A stretch of 64,000 bases of DNA from an uncultured Gammaproteobacteria bacterium (GTDB lineage Bacteria > Patescibacteriota > Microgenomatia > UBA8517), in NCBI GenBank assembly GCA_964427735.1, contig CAYRUS010000001.1:226173-290172 (forward strand), written 5' to 3'. How positions within the stretch are numbered: position 1 is the stretch's first letter; each line of letters starts with the position of its first letter. Positions 7,487 to 37,515 of this stretch are shown here, piece after piece. The notes beneath the pieces were generated by a model. The model made no database searches. It had not been told where the DNA came from and saw nothing but the letters and a program-made list of their open reading frames with translations. A program made the translations under genes and the position numbers.

Positions 7487-7582
7487 ATTTATACTCTATC
7501 AGAAATCAAGTTAAATAAAAATATTGCTTAAATTGACCAAAATTGTAAACTAGCCTAAACTAACATGCTGTAGAATATAGAT

Positions 7583-17727: not shown

Positions 17728-20700
17728 TTAATTGAATAAATTCTCCCTAGCCAAAGAAAGACCATCTATAACAACATTGCTGTCTTTGCGAATCTCGCTT
17801 TGCATAATCTGCAAAAAATCTCTGGCATTTTTCTCCCAACTAAATCCTTCAGCCCATTTTTTTGCTTTCCTGGAAAGCTCCATTCTTTTTTTATTGTTTT
17901 TTATAAGATCCTCCATAACTTGAGCAAGAGAATCTACATTTTTTAATGGAAACAAAATTCCAGTCTCTCCATCTACAACAGAGTCTTTAAGTCCACTTAC
18001 ATTAGAAGCTACAACAGGAGTAGCACATGCATTTGCCTCTAAAACTGTTATCCCCCAACCTTCAAAAGTAGATGGCTGAATAGATACCCAACTTTTTGAG
18101 AGCTCATTTATTTTTCTTTTCTCACTTACTTTCCCTGTAAGTTTTACAAACTCATTTAATTTATTTTTCATAATTAACTCCTTAATAAACTCTCTACTCT
18201 CACCGTCTCCTGCTATTGTTAATCTAGCTTCCGGGTATTTGGCTACAATCTTTGAGAATGCATTTATGGCAATATCTATGTTCTTATATGGCTTTAATCT
18301 ACCTAAATAAATAAATGATGGATATTTTGTCTTTTTAATTCCATTAACTTTTATATCTACACAAGGAGGAATAATGTGAATATTTTCTCTGTGATTAAGT
18401 CCGATTCTCTTTAACTCTTTTTTTGTTGATTCAGATACAGTAATAATAGTGCTTTTTCTATATGCAATCGGTATTAATTTCCCTTCTAAAAACATCGCAA
18501 TTCTGTTTAACGGAAACGGTAATAGCTGTCTGTGCACATCTTGGTGGATATGATGCAAAACAAGAATTTTGGGTAAGCGAGAATAAAATGGAGTAAAAAA
18601 CGGAATACCGTTTTCGCAATCAATTACAATGTCAAACTTTCCTCTAAATTTGATTGTGTAGTATAAAAATGCCCAAAGATAAACAGTATAAAATCCACCT
18701 CTTCTTATTATTTTTACCCCATCTATTTTTTCTGTACGTTTTGATTTTTGATCGCTACCGCAAAAAATTGTCACTTCATGTCCTTCCTTTACCCAATTTT
18801 TAGCTAAATTATGAATATAAACTTCAGCACCGCCTGCCCAAACATGCTTAATATCTCTCCAATTAAAAACCAATATTTTTAAACTACTAGCTTCTTTAGT
18901 TGAAGTGTTATTAAAGTTTGTGAATAAACCAAACAGGTCCTCAATATTTCCAATAATAGAGCCTGATTTGCTATAAACAATGTGCAACAGAGACACGACC
19001 AAAAGCTGTGTAATTGCAAGTCCGGATGCTATATTTGCTATCTCAACAAATGAAGAATGATAATTTGAAATAGCAAAAACTTGTACAAGGGAAAATCCTA
19101 CTGACAAAATTGCAAATGAATAATCATTTTTAATTAGGTGATAAGTTACAATTCCCACTGACACAGTAAAAGCAACCATCCCAATACAGAACCTAATTAA
19201 ATAGGGCAAAATTGGATAAGCTTTTGAGCCAAAGAGAATTGGAACTGTATAAAAACCAAACCAACCAATAAATACAAATCCAATTAAAGATGATGCAGTT
19301 GAAGCTAGAAGTAGCTTATTAAATATAGAAATAGTTTCTAAACCTTCTCCTTCTCTTTTACTTATCAGAGGTATAAAAAACTGAGAAAACAAAGTACCTA
19401 GATAAAAAACAATTTTCCCTGATAAAGAAAGCAAAGCGTAAATTCCTGCTTCTTCTGAAGGTAAGTAATGCTTTGCCATCACAACATCAATGCTCAAAAA
19501 TGCAACGGCAGATATATTTGTAAGCAATGAGGCAGAAAAGAAAGTGGTAGGAAATCTTAATAATTTTTCTGAAAGCTTGTTTGTTTTAACAAATCGTGTT
19601 TTTGCAATTACTAATTCACTTAATATAAATGCCACAACAACTGAAGCAGGAATAGCAACATAAATAAGCTCTGTATTATCTAACTCAATCGCAATGACAG
19701 TAAAAATTAATTTAGTCACTGCCTCAATAAGTAAAACAAATCCCAAGGTATAAAATTTTATGTTTCCTGATAAATATCCCTTATTTGCAGCTAGTAAAAA
19801 TCCTACTGTAAAAACAGGAAAGAAACTCAAGAAAGGCAAAATATCTGCTGTTTTAAAGTAGGAAAATAAATATGGATTTATTAGAAGCCATGATAAAGTT
19901 ATCAAAAATGAATATAAAACTATTCTTTTTTTTGTATTATCAAGAAAGCATCTGATTGGAAGCTTAACTTTCCCAAAGATATAACCGCTTTTATAAGAAA
20001 TCGCAGTATATAAAGAAACAAAAACAATGCCAACAATTCCAAATATGTTGGACATCAAACTTACCGTACCAAATTCATCAAAATCCAGATTGCGACCAAG
20101 ATATGCATTATAGAAAAAGTTTGCAAAATTAAAAAAGACAGTTACCCCAAACAAGAAAAGAAAAGAACCTTTTTCAGAATATTTCATCACATATTGTTTC
20201 AATAAATTTAACCTTGGCTTTGGCTGAGGTTGAGTAATTTGGATAGAAATCTTTTTCTTTTGAGGTGATTTTGGACCACCTTTTTTAAGATGAAGTCCAT
20301 GAATTGTTTTTTCCCAATAATGTGGTTTTACAATTAATTGATAAAAAGCAATTACAGCAGAGACACTTGCCATCATCCAATAAAATGGAATAAAAAAGAC
20401 ATGGTAAACCAAATTCCATTCATTTCTTTTGGCAAGCCCAATCATGTAGCTGTAGAAATATAGAAAATTTCCAAATACCAAACAGACCACAGCAACGTAA
20501 AAAACTAGCGGAGGAAATAAAGATTCAATTTGTAGACCAACATAATCATAAAATACAAAGTAAGAAATGGTTGCAATCCAAAAAATAGGGTTAATTATTA
20601 TAAAAACCATCCTCATACCAATAATCAGCTGGAACAAAATAGTATGGATTCCACTTTCCTTAAAAAATTGAACTGGGTTTCTCATATGTACCAGATAGGT

Positions 20701-22419
20701 TTGAAAGTAGCCCTTAATCCACCTTGATCTTTGCCTTAACCAATTTTTTAGATTACTGTTTGCTTCTTCATAGGTTGTTGAATCAATAATTGCAGTTTTG
20801 TAACCTGCCTTAAACAATCTGACTCCTAAGTCACAGTCTTCTGTAACATTAAATGGATCCCATCCATGAAGCTTACTTAAGTTATCTTTTCTAAAATGGT
20901 TGCTTGTTCCTCCAAGGGGAATACTTGTTCCTATTGTCTGTAGTCCAGGTAAAATTAGATCAAACCACAAAGAGTACTCTGCGGTAAAAAGACGAGTTAG
21001 GAAATTGTATTTACTATTGTAATAATTTAGTTTTGATTGCAAACATACATAGTTTTTTGGGAGTTTTTTGAAGGCAAGATAAGCTTTTTTAAGCTGTAGA
21101 GGATCAGGCTTGTCCTCTGCATCATAAATTACTATGTACTCTCCTTTTGAATGGAATAAACCATAATTGCAGGCCTTTGGTTTTGTTTTTGGCTTTGAAT
21201 CAGGAACAATTAAAACTTTTATGTACTTAGGTAAATTTATTTTTTTTGCTGTATTGATTGTTTCTGTGTCATCTTCCTCTAAAAGTAAAAGTACATCGAG
21301 CTTGCCTTTAGGCCAATCCAAATTTTTAATTGCTTCTACAAAATGAGGAAGCACTGAAGCTTCTTTGTACAAAGGGCAAAGAATACTATAAACAGGAAGG
21401 TCTTTGTTTTTAACAGCTTTTAGTTCTTTGTCTGGTATCGAAATTTCTGGAGATTTCCCCAAGCTTGTGGTGAGAATTGCCGCTGAAAACGCTAAATCCA
21501 AAAAATAAATTAGTGTCATTACTGCAATAAAGACAATTATTAAAAGCTTCAAATTAAGCACTGCTCCAATAAGAGCAAGCACAAGTAATGTTAGGAAAAA
21601 TAGTTTTTGATTAATTGTAAAAGTTGTGATTGCTGATTTATCTACGGGTAAATCTGTATAAGTAACGAATTTTTTACCTTTGTAAAAAATAGTAGGAAAT
21701 TTTGCGTATTTATCGTATATTTTGTAAACTTTTGAAGGCTTAAATTTAAGAATTAATGAGTTTTTGGCAATTTCGTATGATGCACTTAAGATATTTATTT
21801 TTGAACTGCCCTTGTTTCTTTTAGTAAACTCAATATCAATTCCCACTATACTTTCACCCAAATCTAAGGCAGTTTTTAGTAAAGATAAATCTAATGTCCA
21901 AGGAGAAACATCTTCATCCTTAATTTGACTAATGATCTCTTTTTTGAAGACTTTCATTCCAGATTGAGTGTCTACTTTAAATCCGTGCAGCAGTCTTTCA
22001 AAAAAAAGTAGATGAAGCTTTGATAATATTTTCCTTTTTAAGTCAACATCTCTGTAGATTCTATTGCCTACTACAACACCATGCTTTTGTGATAGCTTTA
22101 GCATTTCAGGTAATTTTTCAGGCGGGTACTGAAGATCCCCATCTATCATTGCTATTTTGATATATTTAGCTTTTTTAACTCCTTCAATAATACTATAAGA
22201 TTTCCCCTGCTTTCCTTTTTTGGGTAATATTTTTATTGGTTTTCTACCTTTGTTTTTTTTAATTTCTTTTACTGTTTTGTCTGTTGAAGCATCATCTACA
22301 AAAATAATCTCATATTTGATTTTCGCTTTCCTCATGACCTCGGAAATACGTTTTATGAGATTTGCTATATTACCCTCTTCATTCCAAACAGGGACAATGA
22401 TGGACATTTCCTTCTTCAT
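17728..22419 (-). CDS. giant multidomain glycosyltransferase: GT2 + processive GT2 (QxxRW) + about 14-TM region + GT4
   Basis: 1563 aa. Residues about 1-230 are GT2 (IIVPVWNEEG...VDDASTD...DGDLQ). Residues about 330-620 are a second GT2 with DAED and QRSRWIKG (cellulose/chitin-synthase-like processive motif), followed by TM helices. A further polytopic block follows. Residues about 1180-1563 are GT4 (GGAEVY...GRLKPYKNID...FEGWGITVLEANACATPVV). Confidence 0.8.
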   Translation of the reverse strand: MKKEMSIIVPVWNEEGNIANLIKRISEVMRKAKIKYEIIFVDDASTDKTVKEIKKNKGRKPIKILPKKGKQGKSYSIIEGVKKAKYIKIAMIDGDLQYPPEKLPEMLKLSQKHGVVVGNRIYRDVDLKRKILSKLHLLFFERLLHGFKVDTQSGMKVFKKEIISQIKDEDVSPWTLDLSLLKTALDLGESIVGIDIEFTKRNKGSSKINILSASYEIAKNSLILKFKPSKVYKIYDKYAKFPTIFYKGKKFVTYTDLPVDKSAITTFTINQKLFFLTLLVLALIGAVLNLKLLIIVFIAVMTLIYFLDLAFSAAILTTSLGKSPEISIPDKELKAVKNKDLPVYSILCPLYKEASVLPHFVEAIKNLDWPKGKLDVLLLLEEDDTETINTAKKINLPKYIKVLIVPDSKPKTKPKACNYGLFHSKGEYIVIYDAEDKPDPLQLKKAYLAFKKLPKNYVCLQSKLNYYNSKYNFLTRLFTAEYSLWFDLILPGLQTIGTSIPLGGTSNHFRKDNLSKLHGWDPFNVTEDCDLGVRLFKAGYKTAIIDSTTYEEANSNLKNWLRQRSRWIKGYFQTYLVHMRNPVQFFKESGIHTILFQLIIGMRMVFIIINPIFWIATISYFVFYDYVGLQIESLFPPLVFYVAVVCLVFGNFLYFYSYMIGLAKRNEWNLVYHVFFIPFYWMMASVSAVIAFYQLIVKPHYWEKTIHGLHLKKGGPKSPQKKKISIQITQPQPKPRLNLLKQYVMKYSEKGSFLFLFGVTVFFNFANFFYNAYLGRNLDFDEFGTVSLMSNIFGIVGIVFVSLYTAISYKSGYIFGKVKLPIRCFLDNTKKRIVLYSFLITLSWLLINPYLFSYFKTADILPFLSFFPVFTVGFLLAANKGYLSGNIKFYTLGFVLLIEAVTKLIFTVIAIELDNTELIYVAIPASVVVAFILSELVIAKTRFVKTNKLSEKLLRFPTTFFSASLLTNISAVAFLSIDVVMAKHYLPSEEAGIYALLSLSGKIVFYLGTLFSQFFIPLISKREGEGLETISIFNKLLLASTASSLIGFVFIGWFGFYTVPILFGSKAYPILPYLIRFCIGMVAFTVSVGIVTYHLIKNDYSFAILSVGFSLVQVFAISNYHSSFVEIANIASGLAITQLLVVSLLHIVYSKSGSIIGNIEDLFGLFTNFNNTSTKEASSLKILVFNWRDIKHVWAGGAEVYIHNLAKNWVKEGHEVTIFCGSDQKSKRTEKIDGVKIIRRGGFYTVYLWAFLYYTIKFRGKFDIVIDCENGIPFFTPFYSRLPKILVLHHIHQDVHRQLLPFPLNRIAMFLEGKLIPIAYRKSTIITVSESTKKELKRIGLNHRENIHIIPPCVDIKVNGIKKTKYPSFIYLGRLKPYKNIDIAINAFSKIVAKYPEARLTIAGDGESREFIKELIMKNKLNEFVKLTGKVSEKRKINELSKSWVSIQPSTFEGWGITVLEANACATPVVASNVSGLKDSVVDGETGILFPLKNVDSLAQVMEDLIKNNKKRMELSRKAKKWAEGFSWEKNARDFLQIMQSEIRKDSNVVIDGLSLARENLFN

Positions 22420-25559: not shown

Positions 25560-26663
25560 ATGCAGTCTAGGCCTTTAAATAGAAACCTCCACAAAGCCAA
25601 CAAAGCAAAAAAGGATGAATTCTATACTCAACTCACAGATATAGAAAAAGAGCTCAGGCACTACAAAGACCAGTTTAAAGGTAAAGTGGTTTACTGCAAT
25701 TGTGATGATCCTTTTGAAAGCAATTTTTTCAAATATTTTGCATCTAGTTTCAATAGCTTGGGGCTAAAAAAATTAATAACAACAAGCTTCAGCGGCTCAC
25801 CAATAACTGGAAAACAGCTATCTCTTCTGGACATGGAAGGACTAAAGCCAGAGGGCAAGCAGCCTTTTAAGATTGTAATAACAGAAGTACCAGACAAAAA
25901 TGCAGATGGTGCAGTTGATATTGCAGATGTGGAATGGCTTTTAAAACACGACGGCAATACCTCAACTCCACTAAAAGAAAATGGAGACTTTAGGAGTGAA
26001 GAATGCATTGAGCTTTTAAAAGAATCAGATATTGTTGTCACCAACCCACCTTTTAGCTTATTTCGCGAATATGTAGCACAGCTGGTCGAGTATGATAAAA
26101 AGTTTTTGATAATTGGAAATTTGAATTCGATTACTTATAAAGAAATATTTAAGTTAATTAAAAACAATCAATTATGGCTTGGGTATAATAACGGACATAA
26201 AGTTTACATGGTTCCAGATGATTATGAACAAAAAAATATTTTTATTGGTGAGGATGGGAAAAAATATGCAAAGATGGGAAATACCGGTTGGTTTACAAAT
26301 CTTGATGTCAGTAAAAGACATGAAATTCTTACGCTGTATAAGAAATATAGTCCAGAAGAGTATCCCAAGTATGCAAATTATGATGCAATAGAAGTATCTA
26401 AAGTGTCAGATATCCCAATGGATTATGAGGGAGAAATGGGAGTACCTGTAACATTCTTGGAAAAATATAATCCAGACCAATTCGAGATTATCGGTTCAAG
26501 TAGTAATTTATCAAATCCAATAAAAACTCCAAAAGGATTAGTTTATCGATATACAGACCGTAATGGGTATGTCCGACAGGCAGCAAATGAGCGTTTTGCT
26601 TTACCAGATGGCGATACATGGAGACGAATTTATGACCGGATTGTGATTAAAAAAATAAAATAA
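25560..26663 (+). CDS. N6-adenine DNA methyltransferase, EcoRI-methylase-like family
   Basis: The catalytic motif IV VVTNPPF is present. The N-terminal KDEFYTQ...VVYCNCDDPFESNFFKYF resembles the EcoRI-methylase family N-terminus as I recall it. No cognate restriction endonuclease gene was recognised nearby. Confidence 0.65.
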   Translation: MQSRPLNRNLHKANKAKKDEFYTQLTDIEKELRHYKDQFKGKVVYCNCDDPFESNFFKYFASSFNSLGLKKLITTSFSGSPITGKQLSLLDMEGLKPEGKQPFKIVITEVPDKNADGAVDIADVEWLLKHDGNTSTPLKENGDFRSEECIELLKESDIVVTNPPFSLFREYVAQLVEYDKKFLIIGNLNSITYKEIFKLIKNNQLWLGYNNGHKVYMVPDDYEQKNIFIGEDGKKYAKMGNTGWFTNLDVSKRHEILTLYKKYSPEEYPKYANYDAIEVSKVSDIPMDYEGEMGVPVTFLEKYNPDQFEIIGSSSNLSNPIKTPKGLVYRYTDRNGYVRQAANERFALPDGDTWRRIYDRIVIKKIK

Positions 26664-26736
26664 GGTATAGGATTATTAATCAGACACAAAAAAGTCAACG
26701 GAGTTAAAGCATGAAGATAAGTACAAAAGTAAATTT

Positions 26737-29520
26737 ATGAACGAAAACACAGGAACAGTAAGTCCACTATTAAAGAACTTTTTTGAAAACTTCTTGTCTA
26801 CAGAACTAGAAAAAGAAGATATCTCTGACGAATATTTAACTCTTTTGAAAATATTATGGCTTAGTTTTGACGAGATTATTACAAAAACTAAAATTACAAG
26901 GCGTATTTATACACTACAACTTATTGAAAAATATCTTATTAATAGCGAGTACCGCAAATCCGTCGATGAAACAGAATTGCCGAAAACTGACGTTTTTCTT
27001 GAGTCTCAGGGTTCTGACACACCTAAAATTAAACTAAAGAAAATCAATATTGTAAATTTCCGAGGATTTAGAGCAAACTCCGATGGTACTGGAAGAAAAA
27101 TCTTTTTCAACGATAAAGCAAGCTTATTTTTTGCACCTAATGGCGGAGGTAAAAGTAGTCTTTGTGAAGCTTTAGAATGGACACTTACCGGTGATACTTC
27201 AGAGCATGTGCAACGTAGCACCGAATCGACAGACACTTATTTTCAAAATAGGGATATTGGTGAACCCAGCTATAAGAAAACTAAAATTGATATGCATGAA
27301 GGGTTCAATCCTGACATCCCTAACATTGCTTTTGATAGATGCTTTTTAGAGAAAAATAGAATCGAAAAGTTTGCCAAGATTGCTACGCAAAAAGGTGTTG
27401 AAGTTCAAAATATACTGGGTGAATTATTTGGGCTTACAGAGATCGTAGATTTTTTCAAAGAGTTTGGACAAGACTTATTTCCCACACCTAATGAAAAAGG
27501 TGAAAGAGAAAATTGGCAGACTTGGCTAGATTGGGAGGTAAAAAAGCGTGAATTGGAAAAGGGTTTAGAAGAGTCAAAAAGAGAAGAAATGACAGCTTTT
27601 GAGGAATTTAACAGACTTCTTGATAACAAAAAATACGATGATAAGAAAAAAGAGATAGAAGAAGAAATTAAGAAACTAAAAAATGAACTAGAGTCTTTAA
27701 GCGTGGATAATAGTACTGAGTTTTCAAGCGAAGATTTTTTGAAGATCGTTGATGAATTTCTTTATAAATTAAAACAGTGGAAAGAATGTAAGAATGAAAT
27801 TGAAAAAAATGCAGCCAATCTGAATTTCGAAAGCTTGTATCAGACTGCAAGTAAGATTTTTCAAAACAATCAAAACATAAGTGAATGTCCTCTCTGTGAT
27901 ACACCAATTACACAGAATGGCGGTCTACTTTCAAAGCATAAATGTGTAGTTACCGATCCTAGAGATAAAACCAAGTCAGAGCTAAAAAAATTGGAAGCCT
28001 TAACTGCATTGAAAAGCAAAAAATCAAACACCGAGTCCGATATTAGAAACCATTTCGCAAAATTTAAAGATGAGTGGACAAAAGTTCACTCAAACTTAAA
28101 AGATGAAAATTGGTCCGTTATATCAAATAATGTCTCTAATCCTGAAATACCAAATATCAATACACAAAGTATCGACTCACTTGTATATGATGACTTTGAG
28201 GCATTTGTTGATAGTTGCGAAAAAGCGTTAAATCAAGACTTCTCTCAAATAAAAGAGGTGGAAAAAATCATCTCTTCATATAAGCACAAAAGGCAAGAGT
28301 TAAAGTCAAGGAAGCAAGAACAAAACGAAAAAATTAACAAACTAAGTGAAACTCTCGATAATCTCGAAACAGCATATGAAACTTACTCGAATAAGAAAGC
28401 TATATGCGAGAAAGGCAATGTGAGATTGGAAAAGTTAAAAAAACAATCTAGAAACTCGGGTGTTTTTAAGAAACTGCTAGACGAGTACACTAAGCTATAT
28501 GCCTCACTTCATGACTTTCTTACATCCGCCATACTGACAGAAGCAAAAGATATTGACAGCTTAGTGACTGGTTTTTATCGTGCACTAAACCTTCACGACC
28601 ACGATGGTGAGATTGTTAAAGTTATAAAATTTCCAAAGAAAATTCAGGATGATTTTTGTCTCATTTATAAGAAGGACGAAGAAAGCATATGTAATGCGTT
28701 GCAGGTATTAAGTGAGGGACATTTAAAAACCCTCGGATTGGCAGCTTTACTTGCAAGAGCAGCTAGATTAAATACTTCGTTACTTGTTTTTGATGATGCT
28801 ATAAACGCAATAGATTCAGATCACAGGGACAACATAGCTCACCTTCTTACTGGAAGGTTTGGGGATGATCAGGGTGTGTTGGCCTTTGGAAACAAATGGA
28901 GGCAGATAAAAGATTACTTGGGCAATTGCCAATTTATTATTACCTCCCATGACCGTTTCTTTGACGAAAAGATCGCTAACCTTTTCGAAAAAGACAACCA
29001 AACAAGATATGTTCTTTATTGCAGTCAGAATGGAATCGATTTTTGCGAAAGAGGCACCCCGGCAAATTTTGAGAAGAAAATAGAGGACTACCTAAATCCA
29101 GCTACTCAAGATATTCGATCCGCAATATTTTACTGTCGTATTTGGCTAGAAGATATTCTCTTTAACATTGCAATTCATTTTAGAAAACCGGGTAATAATA
29201 AGCGGATTGAGTTCGAGAACATCATGGATAGGAGAACTAAATCTTTGAAAAACCCAGAATTAATTGTGCTTCTGGATAAGTTGGTATCTAATTTAAACAA
29301 CAAGGATGCATCAGACGAATATAAACAAATTGCCAGTATATTGGAACAAATTAAACAGGAAAATGATGGGAAATATGTTTGGTTCTTTGAAATATTAAAC
29401 CAAGAGAGCCATTATCGAAGGTTTGACCACGTAGATGTCTCAAATGCACCTACAAGCAAAGAGGTAGAGACTATTTTCGAGAATATTCAAAAGATACATA
29501 AGTTGTATTCAGGAATATAA
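26737..29520 (+). CDS. Rad50/SbcC/RloC-like ABC-type ATPase with long coiled-coil, CxxC hook-like motif and an unknown C-terminal domain
   Basis: 927 aa. Walker A FAPNGGGKSS (about residue 135), coiled-coil-rich middle with CPLC (about residue 385), signature-like LSEGHLKTLGLAALLA, Walker B LLVFDDA, H-loop ITSHD, then a 170-aa C-terminal extension. Confidence 0.7.
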   Translation: MNENTGTVSPLLKNFFENFLSTELEKEDISDEYLTLLKILWLSFDEIITKTKITRRIYTLQLIEKYLINSEYRKSVDETELPKTDVFLESQGSDTPKIKLKKINIVNFRGFRANSDGTGRKIFFNDKASLFFAPNGGGKSSLCEALEWTLTGDTSEHVQRSTESTDTYFQNRDIGEPSYKKTKIDMHEGFNPDIPNIAFDRCFLEKNRIEKFAKIATQKGVEVQNILGELFGLTEIVDFFKEFGQDLFPTPNEKGERENWQTWLDWEVKKRELEKGLEESKREEMTAFEEFNRLLDNKKYDDKKKEIEEEIKKLKNELESLSVDNSTEFSSEDFLKIVDEFLYKLKQWKECKNEIEKNAANLNFESLYQTASKIFQNNQNISECPLCDTPITQNGGLLSKHKCVVTDPRDKTKSELKKLEALTALKSKKSNTESDIRNHFAKFKDEWTKVHSNLKDENWSVISNNVSNPEIPNINTQSIDSLVYDDFEAFVDSCEKALNQDFSQIKEVEKIISSYKHKRQELKSRKQEQNEKINKLSETLDNLETAYETYSNKKAICEKGNVRLEKLKKQSRNSGVFKKLLDEYTKLYASLHDFLTSAILTEAKDIDSLVTGFYRALNLHDHDGEIVKVIKFPKKIQDDFCLIYKKDEESICNALQVLSEGHLKTLGLAALLARAARLNTSLLVFDDAINAIDSDHRDNIAHLLTGRFGDDQGVLAFGNKWRQIKDYLGNCQFIITSHDRFFDEKIANLFEKDNQTRYVLYCSQNGIDFCERGTPANFEKKIEDYLNPATQDIRSAIFYCRIWLEDILFNIAIHFRKPGNNKRIEFENIMDRRTKSLKNPELIVLLDKLVSNLNNKDASDEYKQIASILEQIKQENDGKYVWFFEILNQESHYRRFDHVDVSNAPTSKEVETIFENIQKIHKLYSGI

Positions 29521-29585
29521 TCCACTGTGAAGAATCAACTTCATACTGTTAGCAAAATTATAAAATCTCCTTTAAGGTAATTAAG

Positions 29586-29936
29586 TCAAAATATCAAAAT
29601 TAATAGAGATGACATTATTATAATCGGAAAAATTAAGTGTAGTAAAAGTATGAAAAATAAACCACTATTTCCTTTATTGTAATATGTTTTATATAACAAT
29701 TCTGGAAAGCCAGTAGTAACAAAACCAGCCAGAAAGAAAATTACAGACACAACAACACCCACAGTCCGATAAGACGAATCACTAGTCAAAAGGATTGTGG
29801 CTTGTGAGAAAAAGTAATACTCAAAAGAGGTTGTATTTTTCTCGAAAAATTCTCCCAGAAGCTCGAATATATATGCCAGACCAAGAAAGAATCTTGCCAA
29901 TGGCCTGGTGAATGCTGATTTTGCGTGTTTTTCCAT
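29586..29936 (-). CDS. small membrane protein, hypothetical
   Basis: 116 aa with 3 predicted TM helices, convergent with the ATPase gene. Confidence 0.35.
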   Translation of the reverse strand: MEKHAKSAFTRPLARFFLGLAYIFELLGEFFEKNTTSFEYYFFSQATILLTSDSSYRTVGVVVSVIFFLAGFVTTGFPELLYKTYYNKGNSGLFFILLLHLIFPIIIMSSLLILIF

Positions 29937-30082
29937 ACTTTAATTATAATAAAAAGCCACATTACTGCACATTTTGAAATATGATTTCTTCAATACACAC
30001 ACCCTCCAGATGATATAGCTTCACACCCCTCACTTTTTGTAATCACAATTGACTGCTGGGACTGCACATAGTTTAATGAATT

Positions 30083-30445
30083 ATGGCATTGGATGGTGAA
30101 GATATGGATCAAATTGAAGAACTTTCAAGGAGTATTTCAGGAGCTAGAGAAGAGAGTTCAAGACGTAATCATGAAATTGAGTTAAGAATTTTAGAAAATG
30201 AGTTGGCATTGTTAGGTAATACTATTCGTGAACGGAAAGCTACAATTCCAGGGTATTCACGAGAACTTAATAATTTTATTAAACTAATTGCAAGTTTTAA
30301 AAAAGCACTTGATACAGAAATAAGAAATAAATATCCTTCAATAGATAGACATAGTTTCAGCATGAGATTTAATGAATTATATGAACCTGGAATTAATAAA
30401 ATTGATAAGCATGTGTTTAAAATAGCAACTACCGGAGGAAACTAA
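30083..30445 (+). CDS. hypothetical protein
   Basis: 120-aa ORF, charged and helical, sitting between the ATPase and the DUF262-HNH gene. Confidence 0.4.
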   Translation: MALDGEDMDQIEELSRSISGAREESSRRNHEIELRILENELALLGNTIRERKATIPGYSRELNNFIKLIASFKKALDTEIRNKYPSIDRHSFSMRFNELYEPGINKIDKHVFKIATTGGN

Positions 30446-30534
30446 TAATTATTCAAACTTCGTATGGTGTCCAACATCCTGTACTCTATTTATAAAATAA
30501 TTGACACTAATTATTTCATGAGTTTTAATTAAAT

Positions 30535-30795
30535 ATGACTGACACCAAAATGCTTCAAGCCATTCTTGATGGACAAAGAGCTATAAAAGAAGAGTTGAAA
30601 GATGATATAAACTCTGTTCGTAAAGAAGTCAATAGATTACATAAAAAAGCCGATGAAGGTTTCAGAATTGTTAATAACAGATTGGATAATATTGGAAAAA
30701 GTGTAGCTTTTCTTGAGGATGATGCTCCAACTCGTGAAGAACACAATAGACTGGAAAAACGAGTAATAAAAATTGAAAACAAGCTTCAAACTTAA
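30535..30795 (+). CDS. hypothetical coiled-coil protein
   Basis: 86 aa with heptad-like charged repeats, on the same strand as its neighbours. Confidence 0.4.
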   Translation: MTDTKMLQAILDGQRAIKEELKDDINSVRKEVNRLHKKADEGFRIVNNRLDNIGKSVAFLEDDAPTREEHNRLEKRVIKIENKLQT

Positions 30796-31091
30796 TCGAT
30801 TCACAACTCTAAAAACTATATCAACACTGTAGAAACTCCCTATAATTGCCTAAATATAGAGATATTCGGTATAATACAAGCAATTAGGAAAATTGGACTA
30901 AGTAAATTGTTTTTAAAAATTACATTAGTCATTGCGAGTGAAACAAAGCAATCCAGAGTATCAGCATAGAAAGCTTGATCGCAACGGAAGTTTTTCAAAC
31001 TCCTCGCGATGACAGGAGTAATTGTCATCCATGTTTTCCATGACAAGAGGAGTAAGTGTCGGTGAAGGAATAAGGCTATAAATTAATAAAT

Positions 31092-32195
31092 ATGAAAATT
31101 CAATTGCACAAATTAACAGTACGCGAAGTTGTAGATGGTTACGTTGACAATGATGAAGAAGGTGTTGTGGGGTTTGGTGGGAAGCTTGATATACGACCTA
31201 AGTATCAACGTGAATTTGTATATAAAGACAAACAACGTGATGCAGTTATTGATACCGTCAAAAATGGTTTTCCCTTAAATGTGATGTATTGGGTAGTGCG
31301 TGATGATGGTGGGTATGAAGTACTGGATGGACAACAAAGAACAATTAGCCTTGCCCAATATATAAATGGTGACTTTTCTGTTGAATTTAACGGCAGGCTA
31401 GCTATGTTTCACAACTTAACCACCGAGGAGCAAAACCAGATATTAGATTATGAGCTAATGATTTATTTCTGTGAAGGTACGGACAAGGAGAGGTTGGATT
31501 GGTTTAGGATAATTAACATAGCAGGAGAAAAGCTAACAGACCAAGAGTTAAGGAATGCTGTTTATACAGGTCCATGGCTAACCGATGCAAAGCTCAAATT
31601 CAGTAAAACAAATTGCGTAGCATACCTTCTGGCTACCGATGGTGGTACTCTACTTTCTGGCTCACCATTAAGACAGGAATACCTGGAAACTGCAATCTCC
31701 TGGATAAATAATGGTGAAATTGAAGAATATATGGCCATACATCAGCATGATGAAAACGCTGAGGAGCTTTGGAACTACTTCCAGGAACTGATTTCCTGGG
31801 TAAGAAAAACTTTCCCAAACTACAGAAAAGAGATGACAAACGTGAACTGGGGAGAGCTTTATAATCAATTTAAAAACGAGCAGTTTAATCCAGAAAAACT
31901 TGAGTCGGAAATCAAAGTCTTGATGCAGGACGAGGATGTTACCAGAAAGTCTGGTATTTACCCTTATGTCCTAACAAGAAAAGAAAAGTTTTTAAACATC
32001 AGAGCATTTACAGACAAGATGAAACGGGAAGCTTTTGAGAGGCAAAACGGTATTTGCCCCTTTTGTAAAAATACGTTTGAGTTGGAAGAAATGGAAGCTG
32101 ATCATATCACCCCATGGCACGAAGGTGGAAAAACAGTTTCAGAAAACTGCCAAATGCTTTGCAAAGAAGACAATAGAACAAAGGCAGGAAAGTAA
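31092..32195 (+). CDS. DUF262 (ParB-like, DGQQR) - HNH endonuclease fusion, GmrSD-like candidate type IV restriction/defense nuclease
   Basis: N-terminal PKYQREFVY...LDGQQRTISL is the DUF262 hallmark. The C-terminal CPFCKN...ADHITPWHEGG...NCQMLCKEDNRTK is an HNH His-Me finger with two Cys pairs. Confidence 0.75.
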   Translation: MKIQLHKLTVREVVDGYVDNDEEGVVGFGGKLDIRPKYQREFVYKDKQRDAVIDTVKNGFPLNVMYWVVRDDGGYEVLDGQQRTISLAQYINGDFSVEFNGRLAMFHNLTTEEQNQILDYELMIYFCEGTDKERLDWFRIINIAGEKLTDQELRNAVYTGPWLTDAKLKFSKTNCVAYLLATDGGTLLSGSPLRQEYLETAISWINNGEIEEYMAIHQHDENAEELWNYFQELISWVRKTFPNYRKEMTNVNWGELYNQFKNEQFNPEKLESEIKVLMQDEDVTRKSGIYPYVLTRKEKFLNIRAFTDKMKREAFERQNGICPFCKNTFELEEMEADHITPWHEGGKTVSENCQMLCKEDNRTKAGK

Positions 32196-32255: not shown

Positions 32256-32954
32256 TTAACGTCTTCTACTTTTTCTGATTTTCAACGTATCCTGCAGAGA
32301 AAAGACCAACATGGCAGCAAGTTCCGGGGTCAACATTGATAATTCGATCAAACTTTTCTTGAGAGAGTTTAATATTTCAGTGTTACCTCTTAATAGTTTC
32401 CCATTTAATAATGCAGAAGCTAGTTCAAAGTCGCTTGCAATTTCATCGGCATGTTTCTGAATATAGTCTAAATTTCCACTGTTCAAAGCTTCACAGTGTT
32501 CTTTAATTCTCTCCAAGGAGACATAATTCATATGCCCACCTTCACCTATTTCTTCCCAGACTTTATCTAGTTTGTTAGTCCAACTTGTAGAAAGTTCATG
32601 TACTACAGAATTATCATGATATGTAAAGAGACCAATATCATAATCCATATTTTTAGGATCCCCATAAATAAGTGAACCATAAACAATTACGTTTAGCCCA
32701 AAAGCATCAATCCAGTCTGACTCTTCTTTAATGAATTTATCTAAAATATTCCACCCTTTCTGAACCTGCTTACTGCTCTTTTCCTTTGGAACCTCAAAAT
32801 CTTTAAGCCGACGTAAATTTTGAGATAACATGTTTATTACTTTTTCAGCAGGATGTCCTATCAATTCTTCGATATCAGCGATTTCATTTTTTCCATAATA
32901 CAGATTCTCTCTTAGTTTGTTCAAATAAACCTTCTTTGGATTTCCTCTTTCCAT
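32256..32954 (-). CDS. nucleotidyltransferase-domain protein (Pol-beta superfamily)
   Basis: VIVYGSLIYGDPKNMDYDIGLF matches the hG[GS]x9-13DhDh signature. It is the last gene of the minus-strand sortase array. Confidence 0.5.
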   Translation of the reverse strand: MERGNPKKVYLNKLRENLYYGKNEIADIEELIGHPAEKVINMLSQNLRRLKDFEVPKEKSSKQVQKGWNILDKFIKEESDWIDAFGLNVIVYGSLIYGDPKNMDYDIGLFTYHDNSVVHELSTSWTNKLDKVWEEIGEGGHMNYVSLERIKEHCEALNSGNLDYIQKHADEIASDFELASALLNGKLLRGNTEILNSLKKSLIELSMLTPELAAMLVFSLQDTLKIRKSRRR

Positions 32955-32963
32955 ATTATTATT

Positions 32964-33482
32964 TCACCTACTTAAATCTATATTCCTCTGCACAAAGGGA
33001 GAAAAATAACCCTTGTATTTTTCCTGAAGTTCAGGTCTTTTCCAATCGTGATTAGTAACTTCTCTCCTACAATTTGCACTTTCACAAGTACATTCAAACA
33101 AAATTCTTTTTTCTGTCTTTTGTGAACAAGTCATCACATAATCAAATGTTATTTCTTCACCAGACTTAATATCTCTCATAGCCACTAGCATTATTTGTCC
33201 AAAAATACCAGCATTTGGTTCACAAGAATGATTAAACCAATCAGCATCATCTGTTTCAGAAACATCTTTTGGTCCTATGAACATATCTTCGTCAATTCCA
33301 AGAGCAAGATATCTAACACTTTCTGGCAACATGTCTCTTTCACTTCTTTCCATAATATGACCGCCAAATACAGCTATTAGTTCGTCCTTTTTGATATCTT
33401 CTTTTGCAAACACACCAGTACCATGAGATTCTGAGGTTCTTGGATCACACTTATTACTTAACCAGTTGTTTTTTAAGATCAT
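32964..33482 (-). CDS. SET-domain protein (putative lysine methyltransferase) with a Cys-rich post-SET region
   Basis: GTGVFAKEDIKKDELI...NHSCEPN...GEEITFDY are the SET motifs. CTCESANC follows as a post-SET cysteine cluster. Confidence 0.75.
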   Translation of the reverse strand: MILKNNWLSNKCDPRTSESHGTGVFAKEDIKKDELIAVFGGHIMERSERDMLPESVRYLALGIDEDMFIGPKDVSETDDADWFNHSCEPNAGIFGQIMLVAMRDIKSGEEITFDYVMTCSQKTEKRILFECTCESANCRREVTNHDWKRPELQEKYKGYFSPFVQRNIDLSR

Positions 33483-33486
33483 ACTT

Positions 33487-34044
33487 TTACTTTCTTTTTG
33501 CTACAACAATAAGCCGCATACTATCATTAAAACCAGTGCAGGTATATAAAGTTAAAGTCTCATCTTCTGTGGGAGCAATAACTTCTAATTCATTTGGGTA
33601 AACTTCTTTAATCTCTTGGACTTCATAGTCAAACCAATCATCATCAGTCATAATATAAATTTCTGTTCCAAGCTGTACTTCCCTTAAAGGTAAAAAAAGT
33701 CCCTCCCTAGCGTGGGCAAAGACCACTTGATTACCCACTTCTCCAGGATAACCTGAACCTTCTCCCCAACCCGCAGAATCAGAAAACACCTCCCAATATC
33801 CATTAACAATTCTAGATCTTTTAATATCTAAGTTGACACCTAAATTAGGAATAACAACTTTGATAGGAGATTTTTTCTCCTCATCAATTTCCATTTCAAA
33901 TCCAGACACCTCAACTGGTTCTTCTTTAAAAGTGTATTCAGCAGAGACATCTGTTGTACTTTCTGGAAAATGACCTAAAAATAATATTCCGCCTAAAACA
34001 AGAAGAGCAATCCCAAAACCGATCTTTCCCCATTTCATAGGCAT
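33487..34044 (-). CDS. sortase family transpeptidase
   Basis: N-terminal TM anchor, His in VVFAHAREG, catalytic Cys in TLYTCTG (the TLxTC motif), and a downstream Arg (RLIVVAKRK). Confidence 0.75.
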   Translation of the reverse strand: MPMKWGKIGFGIALLVLGGILFLGHFPESTTDVSAEYTFKEEPVEVSGFEMEIDEEKKSPIKVVIPNLGVNLDIKRSRIVNGYWEVFSDSAGWGEGSGYPGEVGNQVVFAHAREGLFLPLREVQLGTEIYIMTDDDWFDYEVQEIKEVYPNELEVIAPTEDETLTLYTCTGFNDSMRLIVVAKRK

Positions 34045-34082
34045 ATTTTAACATCAAAGGAGCATTTTTCTAGTCTAAAACT

Positions 34083-35255
34083 TTATGCAGGAAGTTCTTC
34101 CTCTGCAAAAGTTTTACCAATTACAGTAAGACCTAATGTAAGGAAAAGTAGCCCTGCCCAAAAAATCAAAGGGTTATCAGTAGGAACACCACTTGTAGGA
34201 GATAAACCTAAAACTTCACCAACTTTTTTAGAAACATCTGCTGCCGCAATAATCAATCCTCCTCCTGGTTTGTCTTCTTCTTCGCCATTTCCATTTTCCC
34301 CTCCGTTACCAGGGTTTTCTTCTCTTGGTTTTTCTGGCTCACCATCACCAGGAACAACTACCTTACAACAAGGAACCAGTACATTGCCAAAATTTATTTT
34401 TTCGTTTTTAATCAAGAAATTAAAATCAATATCACCTGTAGCAATACTTACATCACCAATATTATTTTTGGCTATATTTTTACCTGTATTTAGACTCCAA
34501 TTAGCATTATTATAAATATCTGCATTGAAATCAGTATTTATGTTGAATAAGTCTATATGTGTTAGAGTTACATGATTGACAGAATATGCCCCGTTCCCAT
34601 TAATAACTATATTATTTGACGAGCTATTTTTGGCTACTTCTATATCTGAAGTATTAATTCTTTTGTTGACTACTGCACCGTAAACTTTTATATTTCCTGT
34701 TTTAATGTTTACATCTCCATTGTTTCCAGATACTTTATTGTAACCTGTATTAGCATTACCATTTATGTTATTTGTAATGTTTGCATTTTGAGATACATTA
34801 ACATCAGTTACATTCTTTTTATCTGAATTAACAGCATTGTGAGAATTACTACCATTATTTGATACATTTATAGATGAACCCTTGTCTGTACAGCACTCTT
34901 CCTTTACGGTTGAGTGGTTGGCCTCGTTAACAACTTCAATATTTTGACTGGAATCACCTGTTACAATTGTAGATTCACCATTTGTTGTATTGTTGATTTC
35001 ATTTCCACCTGTGTTTGTTGTTGTAGAGATATTGTTTTCAATGTCTACTGAATTTGATTGCTCAACCGTAGTTGATGATCCAGAAGTAACATTGACTTCG
35101 TTACTGGATCCACTGCCATTATCTGAAATTACTATTTCTTCTGCCATTGCAATCACGCTTGGCTCTGGAGAGACGAAAATAAATGTTCCAGATACAATAA
35201 CACTTGCTATAAGTAAATGAGCTAATATTTGTTTTGCAAAATCTTTAATGAACAT
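34083..35255 (-). CDS. secreted Asn/Thr/Gly-rich repeat surface protein (paralog A) with C-terminal TM tail
   Basis: Signal peptide, repeated N-x-N-x-x-TG-x-N/TGD motifs, CC dipeptides, and a C-terminus of ...EVLGLSPTSGVPTDNPLIFWAGLLFLTLGLTVIGKTFAEEELPA (LSPTSG plus hydrophobic tail). Confidence 0.6.
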   Translation of the reverse strand: MFIKDFAKQILAHLLIASVIVSGTFIFVSPEPSVIAMAEEIVISDNGSGSSNEVNVTSGSSTTVEQSNSVDIENNISTTTNTGGNEINNTTNGESTIVTGDSSQNIEVVNEANHSTVKEECCTDKGSSINVSNNGSNSHNAVNSDKKNVTDVNVSQNANITNNINGNANTGYNKVSGNNGDVNIKTGNIKVYGAVVNKRINTSDIEVAKNSSSNNIVINGNGAYSVNHVTLTHIDLFNINTDFNADIYNNANWSLNTGKNIAKNNIGDVSIATGDIDFNFLIKNEKINFGNVLVPCCKVVVPGDGEPEKPREENPGNGGENGNGEEEDKPGGGLIIAAADVSKKVGEVLGLSPTSGVPTDNPLIFWAGLLFLTLGLTVIGKTFAEEELPA

Positions 35256-35264
35256 ATTAATTAT

Positions 35265-37397
35265 TTAAGACTTAACTCCAACTAGGACTTTTTTGAGTTT
35301 ATCCAGTCCATAATATGCTCCTGCGAGGACTATAAATGTAAAAGGTAAAGCAAGGTTAATAGTTACCTTCTTTTTATCGCTTTGTGTACCTAAGACAGAA
35401 GGTTTTGAATCACTCTCACCTGCTAGAGCTAATTTATCTCCAGGATCATTATCAACATTTAGATTGCTAACTGCTGATAAATAATTTTTCTCAGATTTTT
35501 TATTGTTGGTATCATCAGTAGATAGAGTATTTATAACTGCAAGGTAATCTCCTTCTGCATCCAAAGAAACACTTGTATCATTTACAAAACTGCTTTGTGA
35601 TTCTGTATGAGAATTTGATGTATTGCCTCCTATTGCTTTATCAGTTGAATTATTACCTTTATCTGAATTATTATTTGCTTCCCCTTGTACAAAATCACCA
35701 ATCCAACTTCCGAAGACGTTAATTACATTTACGAATAGTCTTCCCCCTCCAGTAATGTTTGTATTTACAAAATTAACAATGTTAGCAACAATGTTCGCAT
35801 CACCTGTTTTTATTGTACTGTTCCCGCCTGTATTATAGTTTGCATCATTTCCGCCTGTGTTTGCAGATAACTGAAGGTTATTTCCGACATTGGCATTATT
35901 TACTTGGGTAATGTAGTTGTTATTTTCAATGTTAGCCTCACCTGTATTTGTACTACCTGCACCGTTACCAGAGTTTACTAACTTGACGTCTCCGCTTTCT
36001 GATACATCAAACTCTAAGTCTTCTGAACTTGCAACAGAACCGTCAAAGCCCATTATTTTACCAATCCATTTTCCGGCTTCATTTACTAGTACTAAAAACC
36101 AATCTCCTGAGACAAAATTCATATTTCCAAAGTTAACTACGCTAGCTTCAACATTTGTGTCTCCTGTCACTACAGTACTGTTTCCGCCTGTATTAAAACT
36201 TGCATTATTGTTCCCTGTAGTTGCATCAATTACCAATGTATTGTCAATATCAGCATTATTAAACTGAGTTATATTGTTGTTATTTTCTATATTAGCCTCA
36301 GTTGTATTATCAGAATTTGTACCGTTTCCTGTATTTTTAACTGTGGTGTCTGCAGTACAGCACATTGATGATGGGAATATTATATTACCGATCAAATCAC
36401 CAAATACATTAACCACTGCATAAATAACCCCGCCTTCTACATTAGTGTTTGTAAAGTTAAGCACATTTGCTGCCACATTTGCGTCACCTGTAATAATTAC
36501 ATTATCTCCTCCTGTATTAAAGCTTGTGTCGTTGTATCCAGAGTTTGCCGTAAGAACCATTGTGTTATTTAGGTTTGCATTATTTACTTGAGTTGTATCA
36601 TTGTTATTTGTAACCTGGACACTTCCCGTGTTTTCGCTGTTTGCTCCGTTTCCTTCATTTGAAATATCAACTGTTCCCACACATCCGTACACACATGTGC
36701 CTTTTGAAAAATCTAACACATAATCACCTGATTGATTGTCCATAATATTAAATTCATAAACACTAACTCCTGCTAGATTTGAATTCAAAAAGTTAATTAT
36801 TGTTCCTGTGGAATTTGCATTACCAGTTACAATTACATTGTCTCCCCCTGTATTAAAGCTAGCAGAATTACCACCTGTAGAAGTGGAGATATCCATATTG
36901 TTGTTCACATCTGCATTATTTGTTTGAGTTGTATTTGAGTCATTAACAACATTGACAGAACCATTATTTTCGCTGTTTGCTCCGTTAGCTTCATTAGCAA
37001 CAGATACACTTGGACCGCTTGTTGTTGTAGCTACACCAGTACCTCCACTAGCATTCTGATTGGCAATATTAATGAGTGATCCGTTTGCATTTGCATCTGA
37101 TGTATTTATAGATGAATCTCCCTGCTGTCCGTTTTGAGATTCCCCACCAGATGAGACAGTTGGTTTACTTTCTGATGAAGGTAGTGGCGATTCTGGTGTT
37201 GAGTTGTCAGAATTGTTGTTATTGTGCACAGGAGGCGGAGTTGGTGTAGATGGTGGTGTTGGTTTTGGCGGTGCTGTTGGTGTTGGTGGTGGTGTTGAAT
37301 TTGTTTGAGCCATAACACTACCCATAGGTGAAGTAGCAACAAGCATCGCTACTGTTACTATAACTGCTATCTGTTTTTTGTAATTTACTTTTATCAT
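35265..37397 (-). CDS. secreted repeat surface protein (paralog B), 710 aa, with Pro/Thr linker and four ~80-aa repeats
   Basis: Signal peptide, then a PPTPTAPPKPTPPSTPTPPP linker, then four repeats of pattern NxGNGxxSxN...TQxNNAxxxN...TGxNxAxFNTGG...TGDANV...NFxNxN. C-terminal hydrophobic segment plus KKVLVGVKS. Confidence 0.65.
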   Translation of the reverse strand: MIKVNYKKQIAVIVTVAMLVATSPMGSVMAQTNSTPPPTPTAPPKPTPPSTPTPPPVHNNNNSDNSTPESPLPSSESKPTVSSGGESQNGQQGDSSINTSDANANGSLINIANQNASGGTGVATTTSGPSVSVANEANGANSENNGSVNVVNDSNTTQTNNADVNNNMDISTSTGGNSASFNTGGDNVIVTGNANSTGTIINFLNSNLAGVSVYEFNIMDNQSGDYVLDFSKGTCVYGCVGTVDISNEGNGANSENTGSVQVTNNNDTTQVNNANLNNTMVLTANSGYNDTSFNTGGDNVIITGDANVAANVLNFTNTNVEGGVIYAVVNVFGDLIGNIIFPSSMCCTADTTVKNTGNGTNSDNTTEANIENNNNITQFNNADIDNTLVIDATTGNNNASFNTGGNSTVVTGDTNVEASVVNFGNMNFVSGDWFLVLVNEAGKWIGKIMGFDGSVASSEDLEFDVSESGDVKLVNSGNGAGSTNTGEANIENNNYITQVNNANVGNNLQLSANTGGNDANYNTGGNSTIKTGDANIVANIVNFVNTNITGGGRLFVNVINVFGSWIGDFVQGEANNNSDKGNNSTDKAIGGNTSNSHTESQSSFVNDTSVSLDAEGDYLAVINTLSTDDTNNKKSEKNYLSAVSNLNVDNDPGDKLALAGESDSKPSVLGTQSDKKKVTINLALPFTFIVLAGAYYGLDKLKKVLVGVKS

Positions 37398-37458
37398 TTT
37401 ATTAATTTTTTATAATCTTATTTTTTTATTTTTTCTTTTAAATTTTTGTTTTGGTTAA

Positions 37459-37499
37459 GTAGGGGTATCCACCGAAGTGCGGGTAGACAATCACCCTAC
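37459..37499 (-). other. stable stem-loop with UUCG tetraloop (minus-strand RNA) between surface-protein paralogs C and B
   Basis: GTAGGG...CCCTAC outer stem enclosing CAC-TTCG-GTG on the minus strand. It sits 17 nt after the stop of 37516..38778 and is not followed by a U-tract. Confidence 0.35.
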
Positions 37500-37515
37500 T
37501 GTTCCAAAACTTCCA

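Follow-up and report, generated by a model that had tools for sequence, protein, structure and literature searches.

Among genes nested within multi-gene defence systems, those of ATP-binding cassette (ABC) ATPases are the most frequent (bioRxiv 10.1101/2024.01.29.577857), a "guilt-by-embedding" pattern that includes PrrC (PMC3710099; bioRxiv 10.1101/2024.01.29.577857). In the type Ic system EcoprrI (hsdM-hsdS-prrC-hsdR), an ABC-ATPase-HEPN gene lies between the modification and restriction genes; PrrC is silenced by the neighbouring restriction-modification (R-M) proteins and serves in the literature as the model for an abortive second line of defence that comes into play when restriction is inhibited. 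RloC, as its name indicates, was first seen as a restriction-linked open reading frame (ORF) of 658-897 amino acids (aa) (Davidov and Kaufmann, 2008; PMC2610378). It is defined by an ABC ATPase, a coiled-coil/CXXC insert and a C-terminal Arg-X3-Glu-X36-52-His motif, often with Ser before the His (PMC2610378). The C-domains of both proteins are HEPN domains, often encoded within R-M operons (PMC3710099); in the published comparison PrrC is always R-M-linked and RloC rarely. Here we describe five plus-strand genes at positions 25560-32195 of a 64,000-nucleotide stretch of contig CAYRUS010000001.1 (the window), whose nearest homologues are found in bacteria of the candidate phyla radiation (CPR). 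The block is probably a mosaic, in which a type II-like R-M pair carries an RloC-like ABC-ATPase/HEPN gene embedded between its modification (M) and restriction (R) genes, together with filler ORFs. An earlier reading of the window from its letters alone (the sequence-only reading) had called these genes at exactly these coordinates as an N6-adenine methyltransferase, a Rad50-like ATPase, two small proteins and a DUF262-HNH nuclease. All five are present and were called independently by a gene caller in two sibling assemblies; the three domain guesses are borne out by Pfam matches and a full-length structure model, and the proposed defence island is indeed a cluster of defence-type genes.

ORF 1 (25560-26663, plus strand, 367 aa) is, judged by its sequence, an EcoRI-family N6-adenine (m6A) DNA methyltransferase (MTase) of the gamma class and the M half of the pair. 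It matches Pfam EcoRI_methylase PF13651 at 1e-143 (residues 9-365 on profile positions 1-344 of 345) and the PADLOC model MTase_II PDLC03297 at 3.4e-128 over its full length, and its translation contains VVTNPPFSLF, i.e. the catalytic NPPF motif. A PDB sequence search found nothing for the MTase. Alignments of the MTase to its relatives often end ∼50 residues short of the C-terminus, which suggests a variable target-recognition tail. ORF 5 (31092-32195, plus strand, 367 aa) carries the Pfam domains GmrSD_N (DUF262, with the DGQQR motif, 1.2e-18) and HNH PF01844 (2.7e-11), and residues 1-366 match positions 1-371 of the 372-position PADLOC model REase_II PDLC03418 at 1.2e-143; its PDB matches are limited to generic HNH domains. 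More than 8000 proteins are homologous to the nuclease at E≤1e-20; identity is 76-87% for the top 120, which are spread across phyla.

The two genes travel together. On Sulfitobacter and Mammaliicoccus plasmids an EcoRI-family MTase gene directly precedes the nuclease homologue with a 4-bp overlap, and on further plasmids (Aeromonas, Gordonia, Variovorax, Lactiplantibacillus, and others) the match covers a DUF262 protein and an EcoRI-family MTase gene, labeled in RefSeq as "adenine-specific methyltransferase EcoRI family protein" and "DUF262 domain-containing protein". The R start lies 1-4 bp from the M stop codon in relatives; in the two closest CPR lineages (nuclease 86% identical) the distance is 1 bp. 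Among viral contigs the full-length nuclease was found at 32 loci, 30 of which have the MTase, the remaining two being cut by the contig end. The MTase gene is directly upstream in 27 of these 30 loci, the order is inverted in one, and unrelated ORFs split M from R in two. The identities of M and R to their relatives co-vary (75, 66, 49, and 49% for M; 86, 86, 59, and 59% for R), and the window proteins are 45-86% identical to members of adjacent pairs. We concluded from the PADLOC models, the adjacency and the co-varying identities that M followed by R is a conserved two-gene module and that the MTase, previously described as having no recognisable cognate endonuclease, does have one, the DUF262-HNH protein. 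Database classification and gene linkage point to an R-M pair, in which the MTase would mark host DNA and the nuclease would attack unmarked incoming DNA.

In the window the two genes neither abut nor overlap, but are 4,428 bp apart. The two split viral pairs have inserts of 1.0 and 2.9 kb between M and R (L131, 4959-6001; L135, 3081-6001), one encoding a SEC-C-motif protein and a 135-aa protein of unknown function, the other an isochorismatase-family protein and two unknowns. Since these two pairs are also interrupted by ORFs, the M/R junction may be a recurrent insertion point.

DUF262 nucleases can also be modification-dependent, and ORF 5 could be read as a type IV enzyme of the GmrSD, BrxU, or SspE kind that is not cognate to the MTase. 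Modified DNA is the target of GmrSD and BrxU, two DUF262 nucleases that have been characterised, and SspE, a DUF262-DUF1524 homologue, belongs to a phosphorothioate-based system (PMC4619093, PMC12707154). The nuclease is moreover better conserved than its MTase (86% versus 75% or 66% in the closest relatives; 72% versus 52% in the viral-contig locus L106), which is unusual for classical type II enzymes; in the usual type II pair the trend is the opposite and R is less conserved than M. Against a type IV enzyme stand the near-universal M-to-R overlap across phyla, the full-length REase_II match in the face of unmatched GmrSD, BrxU, and SspE models, and a C-terminal domain that is PF01844 HNH and not DUF1524. 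A modification-dependent nuclease beside an active m6A methyltransferase would also be self-toxic unless it were blind to m6A. We consider this explanation quite improbable, and the GmrSD-type type IV system was rejected on the HNH type and the tight MTase linkage. The pair is very widespread and unusually conserved, and its recognition logic is of interest because a ParB-like NTPase domain is found here in a nuclease that is apparently blocked by modification and not dependent on it.

The embedded gene, ORF 2 (26737-29520, plus strand, 927 aa), encodes a Rad50-like ATPase that matches Pfam AAA_23 (1.8e-13) and SMC_N. The family is small, with 45 matches among 5.8 billion clusters, mostly from CPR bacteria, in which the members are 905-933 aa long and 47-85% identical to the window protein; one match is a 562-aa fragment. 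Among 185,579 species representatives only four loci reach at least 49% identity, one of them a 1.3-kb fragment labeled Nanoarchaeota. Further away, at ∼25% identity, relatives are found in Pseudomonas, Vibrio, Paenibacillus, and other genera. Conservation was scored over 41 family members. At the Walker A/P-loop APNGGGKSS (27130-27156, plus strand, residues 132-140), N135, G136, G138, K139, and S141 are invariant, and the ABC motifs, namely GGGKS of Walker A, the signature LSEG (658-661), DD of the Walker B/D-loop (686-687), and the switch histidine H738, are invariant or nearly so. A CPLC zinc-hook motif (C384-P-L-C387, 27886-27897, plus strand) marks the apex of a coiled-coil insert; C384, P385, and C387 are invariant, and Pfam Rad50_zn_hook matches two family members. 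Taken together, the ABC motifs, CPxC and the C-terminal residues R801, E805, and H892 are conserved in 39-41 of the 41 members.

A full-length AlphaFold model (predicted local distance difference test score, pLDDT, 81.8) shows an N-terminal helical domain, an ABC N-lobe, an ascending arm (266-376), the apex, a descending arm (408-617), a C-lobe and a separate C-terminal helical domain, in this order; the arms are ∼110 and ∼210 residues long and the low-confidence loop 377-401 holds CPLC. The top Foldseek matches of this model are Rad50, cohesin/condensin SMCs, solved LmuB structures and JetC, and a PDB sequence search returned Rad50/SMC heads only.

The last 150 residues suggest a link to PrrC as well as RloC. 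A C-terminal helical domain (29068-29517, plus strand, residues ∼778-926) is HEPN-like, with D792, R801, E805, N888, Q889, E890, and H892 near-invariant and a candidate catalytic triad R801-x3-E805...S891-H892. R801-x3-E805 and S891-H892 are retained by 39 of the 41 members; the Glu-to-His spacing is 86 residues here and 59-91 in the family. HepT toxins are named among the matches, with AbiA and LsoA lower. When this domain was compared with PDB by Foldseek, nothing significant was found. Like RloC, the protein is a single polypeptide of similar size whose ABC head is interrupted by a long coiled coil bearing CxxC at its apex, and its C-terminal helical domain conserves Arg-x3-Glu...(Ser)His. 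It differs from RloC in an extra conserved N-terminal helical domain of ∼95 aa and in its company, as the CPR clade is usually R-M-linked and usually accompanied by a Cas4-like nuclease; R-M linkage is rare for RloC, which acts alone. With PrrC it shares its position between modification and restriction genes; PrrC, however, has neither coiled-coil nor zinc hook, and its host is a type I system and not a two-gene type II-like pair.

Next, eight CPR contexts of the ATPase, the window included, were compared. In the window the EcoRI-family MTase lies upstream, and the ORFan, the small protein and then the DUF262-HNH nuclease lie downstream. The closest ATPase (85% identical, L014) follows HsdS-HsdM and precedes a Cas4-like PDDEXK_1 protein and then a 195-aa protein; the next (78%, L015) lies between a type IIG enzyme and a PDDEXK-like protein. 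Another (58%, L016) is preceded by a PLD-helicase and a type IIG enzyme and followed by a PDDEXK and then a trypsin-like protein, and a fourth (55%, L012/13/17) lies between HsdM-HsdS-x-HsdR and a PDDEXK. The copy behind a PLD-helicase and a type IIG-like MTase (57%, L011) has no same-strand partner downstream. In the remaining two contexts HEPN-type proteins are found in place of the Cas4-like nuclease: in L018 (54%, DEDDh-DinG upstream) it is replaced by a DUF262-only protein resembling HEC-05/PDC-M55C followed by a HEPN_Swt1-like protein (10800-12811), and in L019 (49%, type IIG-like MTase upstream) by an AbiV-type HEPN protein (10730-11443). Thus an R-M or methyltransferase gene is directly upstream of the ATPase in seven of the eight contexts (six of the seven outside the window); at several of the loci there are serine recombinase genes as well. 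Beyond the CPR clade, a 23%-identical homologue lies beside an MvaI/BcnI R-M system on a Liquorilactobacillus (Lactobacillales) plasmid, but most proteobacterial relatives (Pseudomonas and other genera) appear stand-alone. Since R-M genes were detectable with the probes used at only 5 of 80 genome loci of the ∼25%-identical relatives, tight R-M linkage is a feature of the CPR clade and not of the whole superfamily. This difference recalls the published one between PrrC and RloC. Many of the Pseudomonas relatives (L026, L028, L030, L031, L034, and L041) have a conserved protein of ∼1321 aa upstream in divergent orientation, with DUF4365, TPR, and a PIN-TPR-GreABC-like region, which may be another defence gene.

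The same contexts bear on whether the ATPase could be a repair protein, a diverged Rad50/SbcC, that merely happens to adjoin R-M genes. Rad50 is the top structural match, and the zinc hook and the SMC_N and AAA_23 domains fit such a role. On the other side, no context has an Mre11/SbcD gene beside the ATPase, the distribution is sporadic, with the four loci and 45 matches given above, and the gene is consistently 3' of R-M genes, with serine recombinase genes at several loci; it also has the additional C-terminal domain, which Rad50 and SbcC lack (PMC2610378). A housekeeping repair function is very improbable, and a Rad50/SbcC-Mre11/SbcD complex was rejected on the missing partner gene in the eight contexts and the sporadic distribution.

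The Cas4-like PD-(D/E)XK (PDDEXK_1) protein is 251 aa long and 60-80% identical between loci. Its gene follows the ATPase gene in five of the eight CPR contexts with a gap of 1-3 bp (once 81 bp), usually in translational coupling, and it also follows two unrelated ATPases, an OLD-like protein of 538 aa and a PDC-S06-like protein of 878 aa, that lie behind the M-R pair of the closest relatives; the window ATPase resembles these two at the level of P-loop or coiled-coil similarity only. It is always downstream of an R-M system (L004, 12772-13527; L007, 13816-14571; L012, 10766-11521; L014, 5141-5896; L016, 10061-10816; L105, about 7149-7784), and on the viral contig L105 it directly follows the DUF262-HNH gene without any ATPase. 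From its gene neighbourhoods, the Cas4-like protein appears to behave as a promiscuous R-M-linked module. These findings can be arranged differently: the ATPase and the Cas4-like nuclease may be the two halves of a system that targets DNA, similar to Lamassu, Gabija, or OLD, with the C-terminal domain serving for regulation or partner binding and not as an RNase, and the window copy being an inactive or decaying orphan. The close spacing of the two genes, the recurrence of the same nuclease behind the other two ATPases, LmuB among the best PADLOC and structural matches, and the lack of any PDDEXK_1 remnant in the window (tblastn) all favour this arrangement. Decay is argued against by the window ATPase itself, which is full length and has every family-invariant residue intact, including the C-terminal triad. 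The CPR copy L011 also lacks a Cas4-like nuclease, the distant relatives appear stand-alone, and the L105 locus indicates that the nuclease may be an independent module. That R-x3-E...H persists in relatives of 25% identity suggests a catalytic site. We regard an orphaned DNA-targeting sensor as unlikely, though it keeps some weight.

The embedded-ATPase arrangement that we favour would work as follows, by analogy with PrrC and RloC. With the head and zinc hook of the ATPase as sensor, the RNase at the C-terminus would stay silent and be released on DNA damage, at free DNA ends, or when restriction by the neighbouring enzyme fails; silencing by neighbouring R-M proteins, as in PrrC, would apply to the window ATPase by analogy. 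The freed RNase would then cut tRNA or other RNA, halt translation and abort the infection, and the ATPase would act as a second line behind restriction. The Cas4-like partner may have been lost from the window or never acquired. Several points weigh against this picture. H892 lies in a low-confidence loop of both structure models, the arginine of the canonical HEPN Rx4-6H motif is absent (the motif is N-Q-E-S-H instead), and the Glu-to-His spacing falls outside the published RloC range of 36-52. PrrC/RloC sequence models (Pfam AAA_13, PADLOC) do not match the window ATPase. AAA_13, which we take to be the family to which PrrC and RloC are assigned, matches only 2 of the 41 members, at 30.4 and 33.5 bits and below the 36-bit cut-off, and its match in one of them (P0161) covers the N-terminal P-loop region only. 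Because most relatives carry the Cas4-like DNase immediately downstream, that protein might be the true effector and the window ATPase an orphan. As for the pair, no biochemical characterisation of the MTase/DUF262-HNH combination was found in the literature searched, and since the 4.4-kb split breaks the usual translational coupling, the pair may be unbalanced or unexpressed. Finally, no sister genome without the block was retrieved. Because spacing, arginine, N-terminal domain, and sequence models depart from RloC, we describe the ATPase as RloC-like in architecture and probable mechanism and not as a demonstrated member of that family.

The sequence-only reading had seen in the DUF262 domain and the SMC-like ATPase an echo of DndB/DndD and SspE, and had proposed the two small proteins as adaptors or regulators of a novel combination. 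In its fullest form this would be one integrated system, with the ATPase as DNA-scanning sensor, the HNH protein as effector, the MTase for self-marking and the small proteins as adaptors, similar to Dnd/Ssp, Septu, or Menshen. The five genes are co-oriented and intact; 36 bp behind the 54%-identical ATPase of L018 lies the DUF262-only protein and then the HEPN_Swt1-like protein; the usual Cas4-like partner is absent here, so that another nuclease might substitute for it; and there are weak matches to PtuA/PtuB and NsnA. The MTase alone, however, partners the nuclease without an ATPase in ∼90% of loci, the nuclease family is almost always found without the ATPase, and no DUF262 gene is near the ATPase in six of the eight CPR contexts. 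The DUF262 protein of L018 shares with the window nuclease only the motif of the DGQQR region, and between the window ATPase and R genes lie 1.57 kb that hold the ORFan, the unlinked small gene and perhaps an ORF on the opposite strand. Within 10 kb of the block there are no dnd or ssp genes, and DndD and SspE models gave no match in PADLOC searches of the window proteins (E≤0.01 for SspE). We hold a single integrated system to be improbable; the Dnd/Ssp echo falls away, and the combination is better understood as a known R-M module that houses a second defence gene.

The small ORFs fare no better as adaptors. The ORFan (30083-30445, plus strand, 120 aa) matches only itself among 5.8 billion clusters and has no counterpart at any related locus examined. 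The small coiled-coil protein (30535-30795, plus strand, 86 aa) is a member of a widespread family of 75-115 aa with a nearly invariant G...D-x-P-T core LAYLEDDAPTREE and the motif R-[IL]-D-K-[IL]-G-x-Q-L-A-Y-L-E-D-D-A-P-T-R-E-E, with 187 cluster representatives at E≤1e-3 and 48 at ≤1e-10. Family members were not found near ATPase or nuclease homologues at any related locus fetched, nor in phage records; in viral contigs there is one match, probably by chance (degenerate DNA pattern). Neither small protein has a Pfam, PADLOC, or NCBIfam family. A hydrophobic ORF on the minus strand (29586-29936, 116 aa), not mentioned in the sequence-only reading and of doubtful reality, was called in one sibling assembly and not in the other and has no homologues and no Pfam, PADLOC, NCBIfam, or PHROG match; it sits in the gap behind the ATPase gene, where relatives carry the Cas4-like nuclease gene. 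The three are probably passengers or filler and not conserved adaptors, as their lack of conserved linkage suggests.

A spacer of 296 bp (30796-31091) separates the 86-aa ORF from the nuclease gene and stands where relatives have the M/R gene overlap. It has a promoter-like site (30846-30875) and a hairpin (31008-31029), but the consensus matches of the promoter and terminator scans are not above shuffled-sequence expectation. The region 30920-31050 holds cattgcgagtgaaacaaagcaatcc and the hairpin GATGACAGGAGTAATTGTCATC, which presumably resemble short palindromic repeat elements of CPR and Chloroflexi genomes.

Other known systems were compared with the block, and the defence-model search proposed along with the sequence-only reading gave a divided answer: PADLOC recognised the MTase (MTase_II) and the nuclease (REase_II) strongly, the ATPase only weakly, and the small ORFs not at all. 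The best PADLOC match of the ATPase is LmuB PDLC03859 (2.9e-16, nearly the whole 611-position model), and weaker ones are mad3, PbeC, and PtuA. The likeness to Lamassu extends to the LmuB structures noted above; the E-values, however, indicate superfamily-level similarity only, the effector-like domain is fused to the window ATPase and not encoded by a separate gene, and no neighbouring protein has a PADLOC match to LmuA or LmuC. A Dnd/Ssp/Pbe system was rejected on gene content, linkage, and the PF01844 HNH (not DUF1524) of the nuclease; the PbeC match (9e-7) covers only ∼90 N-terminal residues. Septu was rejected with PtuA at only 6.7e-6 and PtuB at only 3e-3, their genes being 1.57 kb apart with ORFs between them. 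Menshen/NsnA and MADS, with weak PADLOC matches only, were rejected on gene content and linkage. HEC-01 to HEC-04 and the PDC candidates (Payne et al., 2024 preprint) share the nesting of an ABC ATPase-based defence gene in another system, but the window ATPase matches no HEC or PDC model, whereas the 878-aa ATPase of a neighbouring locus is PDC-S06.

The R-M pair is already in databases, and both the principle of embedding and the combination of ABC and HEPN domains have been published. New here are a divergent ATPase family, found mostly in CPR bacteria and missed by current models, its consistent docking behind any R-M class, the Cas4-like protein that usually accompanies it, and the ATPase's insertion within a two-gene pair. 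The contexts suggest a modular grammar in which an ABC ATPase, drawn from at least three unrelated ones, comes after any R-M system, and the conserved Cas4-like nuclease comes next. If the ATPase is an RloC-like RNase, the "restriction-guard" strategy of PrrC and RloC would extend to CPR bacteria, whose defence repertoire is poorly charted, and beyond type I systems to simple two-gene R-M pairs. Current concepts are not overturned by these results; a known theme gains a family and a context. A bolder proposal is that the CPR clade is a new class of R-M-embedded sentinel, in which a zinc-hooked Rad50-like ATPase and a divergent HEPN RNase form one protein, docked behind R-M systems of type I, IIG, or II and normally firing together with the Cas4-like DNase, and that the window copy has instead captured the DUF262-HNH nuclease, so that M, ATPase, and R would form one coupled restriction-plus-abortive-infection machine. 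We consider this speculative and rather unlikely.

The block lies between genes of roughly the cell-envelope character described before. On one flank are glycosyltransferases, an NTP-transferase, an RNaseH-like protein and a CAP-domain protein, and on the other a 232-aa protein without family match, a SET-domain protein, a sortase and surface proteins. The composition check suggested for the block against its flanks revealed no anomaly: its GC content is 0.32-0.39 against a background of 0.28-0.40, and its tetranucleotide distance varies from -0.9 to +1.0 standard deviations (SD) around the window mean. These flat profiles give no evidence for or against recent transfer. The block has no tRNAs and no Rfam match, no convincing direct or inverted repeats flank it, and no recombinase gene lies within 10 kb. 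Exact look-ups of the ATPase and of the flanking RNaseH-like protein returned only the same strain in sibling samples, all with the block.

The 232-aa protein (32256-32954, minus strand) is encoded beside the nuclease gene and has no Pfam, PADLOC, or PDB match. Its stretch YGSLIYGDPKNMDYDIGLF resembles the G-S...D-x-D motif of Pol-beta-type (MNT-like) nucleotidyltransferases. HEPN domains are frequently paired with MNT-like nucleotidyltransferases, and given this pairing the protein might be part of the island. The SET-domain protein (32964-33482, minus strand; PF00856, 3.9e-18) has metagenome homologues of 67-73% identity in unrelated neighbourhoods that are not syntenic with the window. At 34001-38000 the tetranucleotide composition deviates most strongly within the window (z 2.3-3.3); two large, repetitive surface proteins rich in N/T/S/G (390 and 710 aa) are encoded there, downstream of the sortase gene. 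On the minus strand at 17728-22419, one ORF of 1563 aa combines GT2, GT2, and GT4/GT1 domains with a long multi-pass membrane region.

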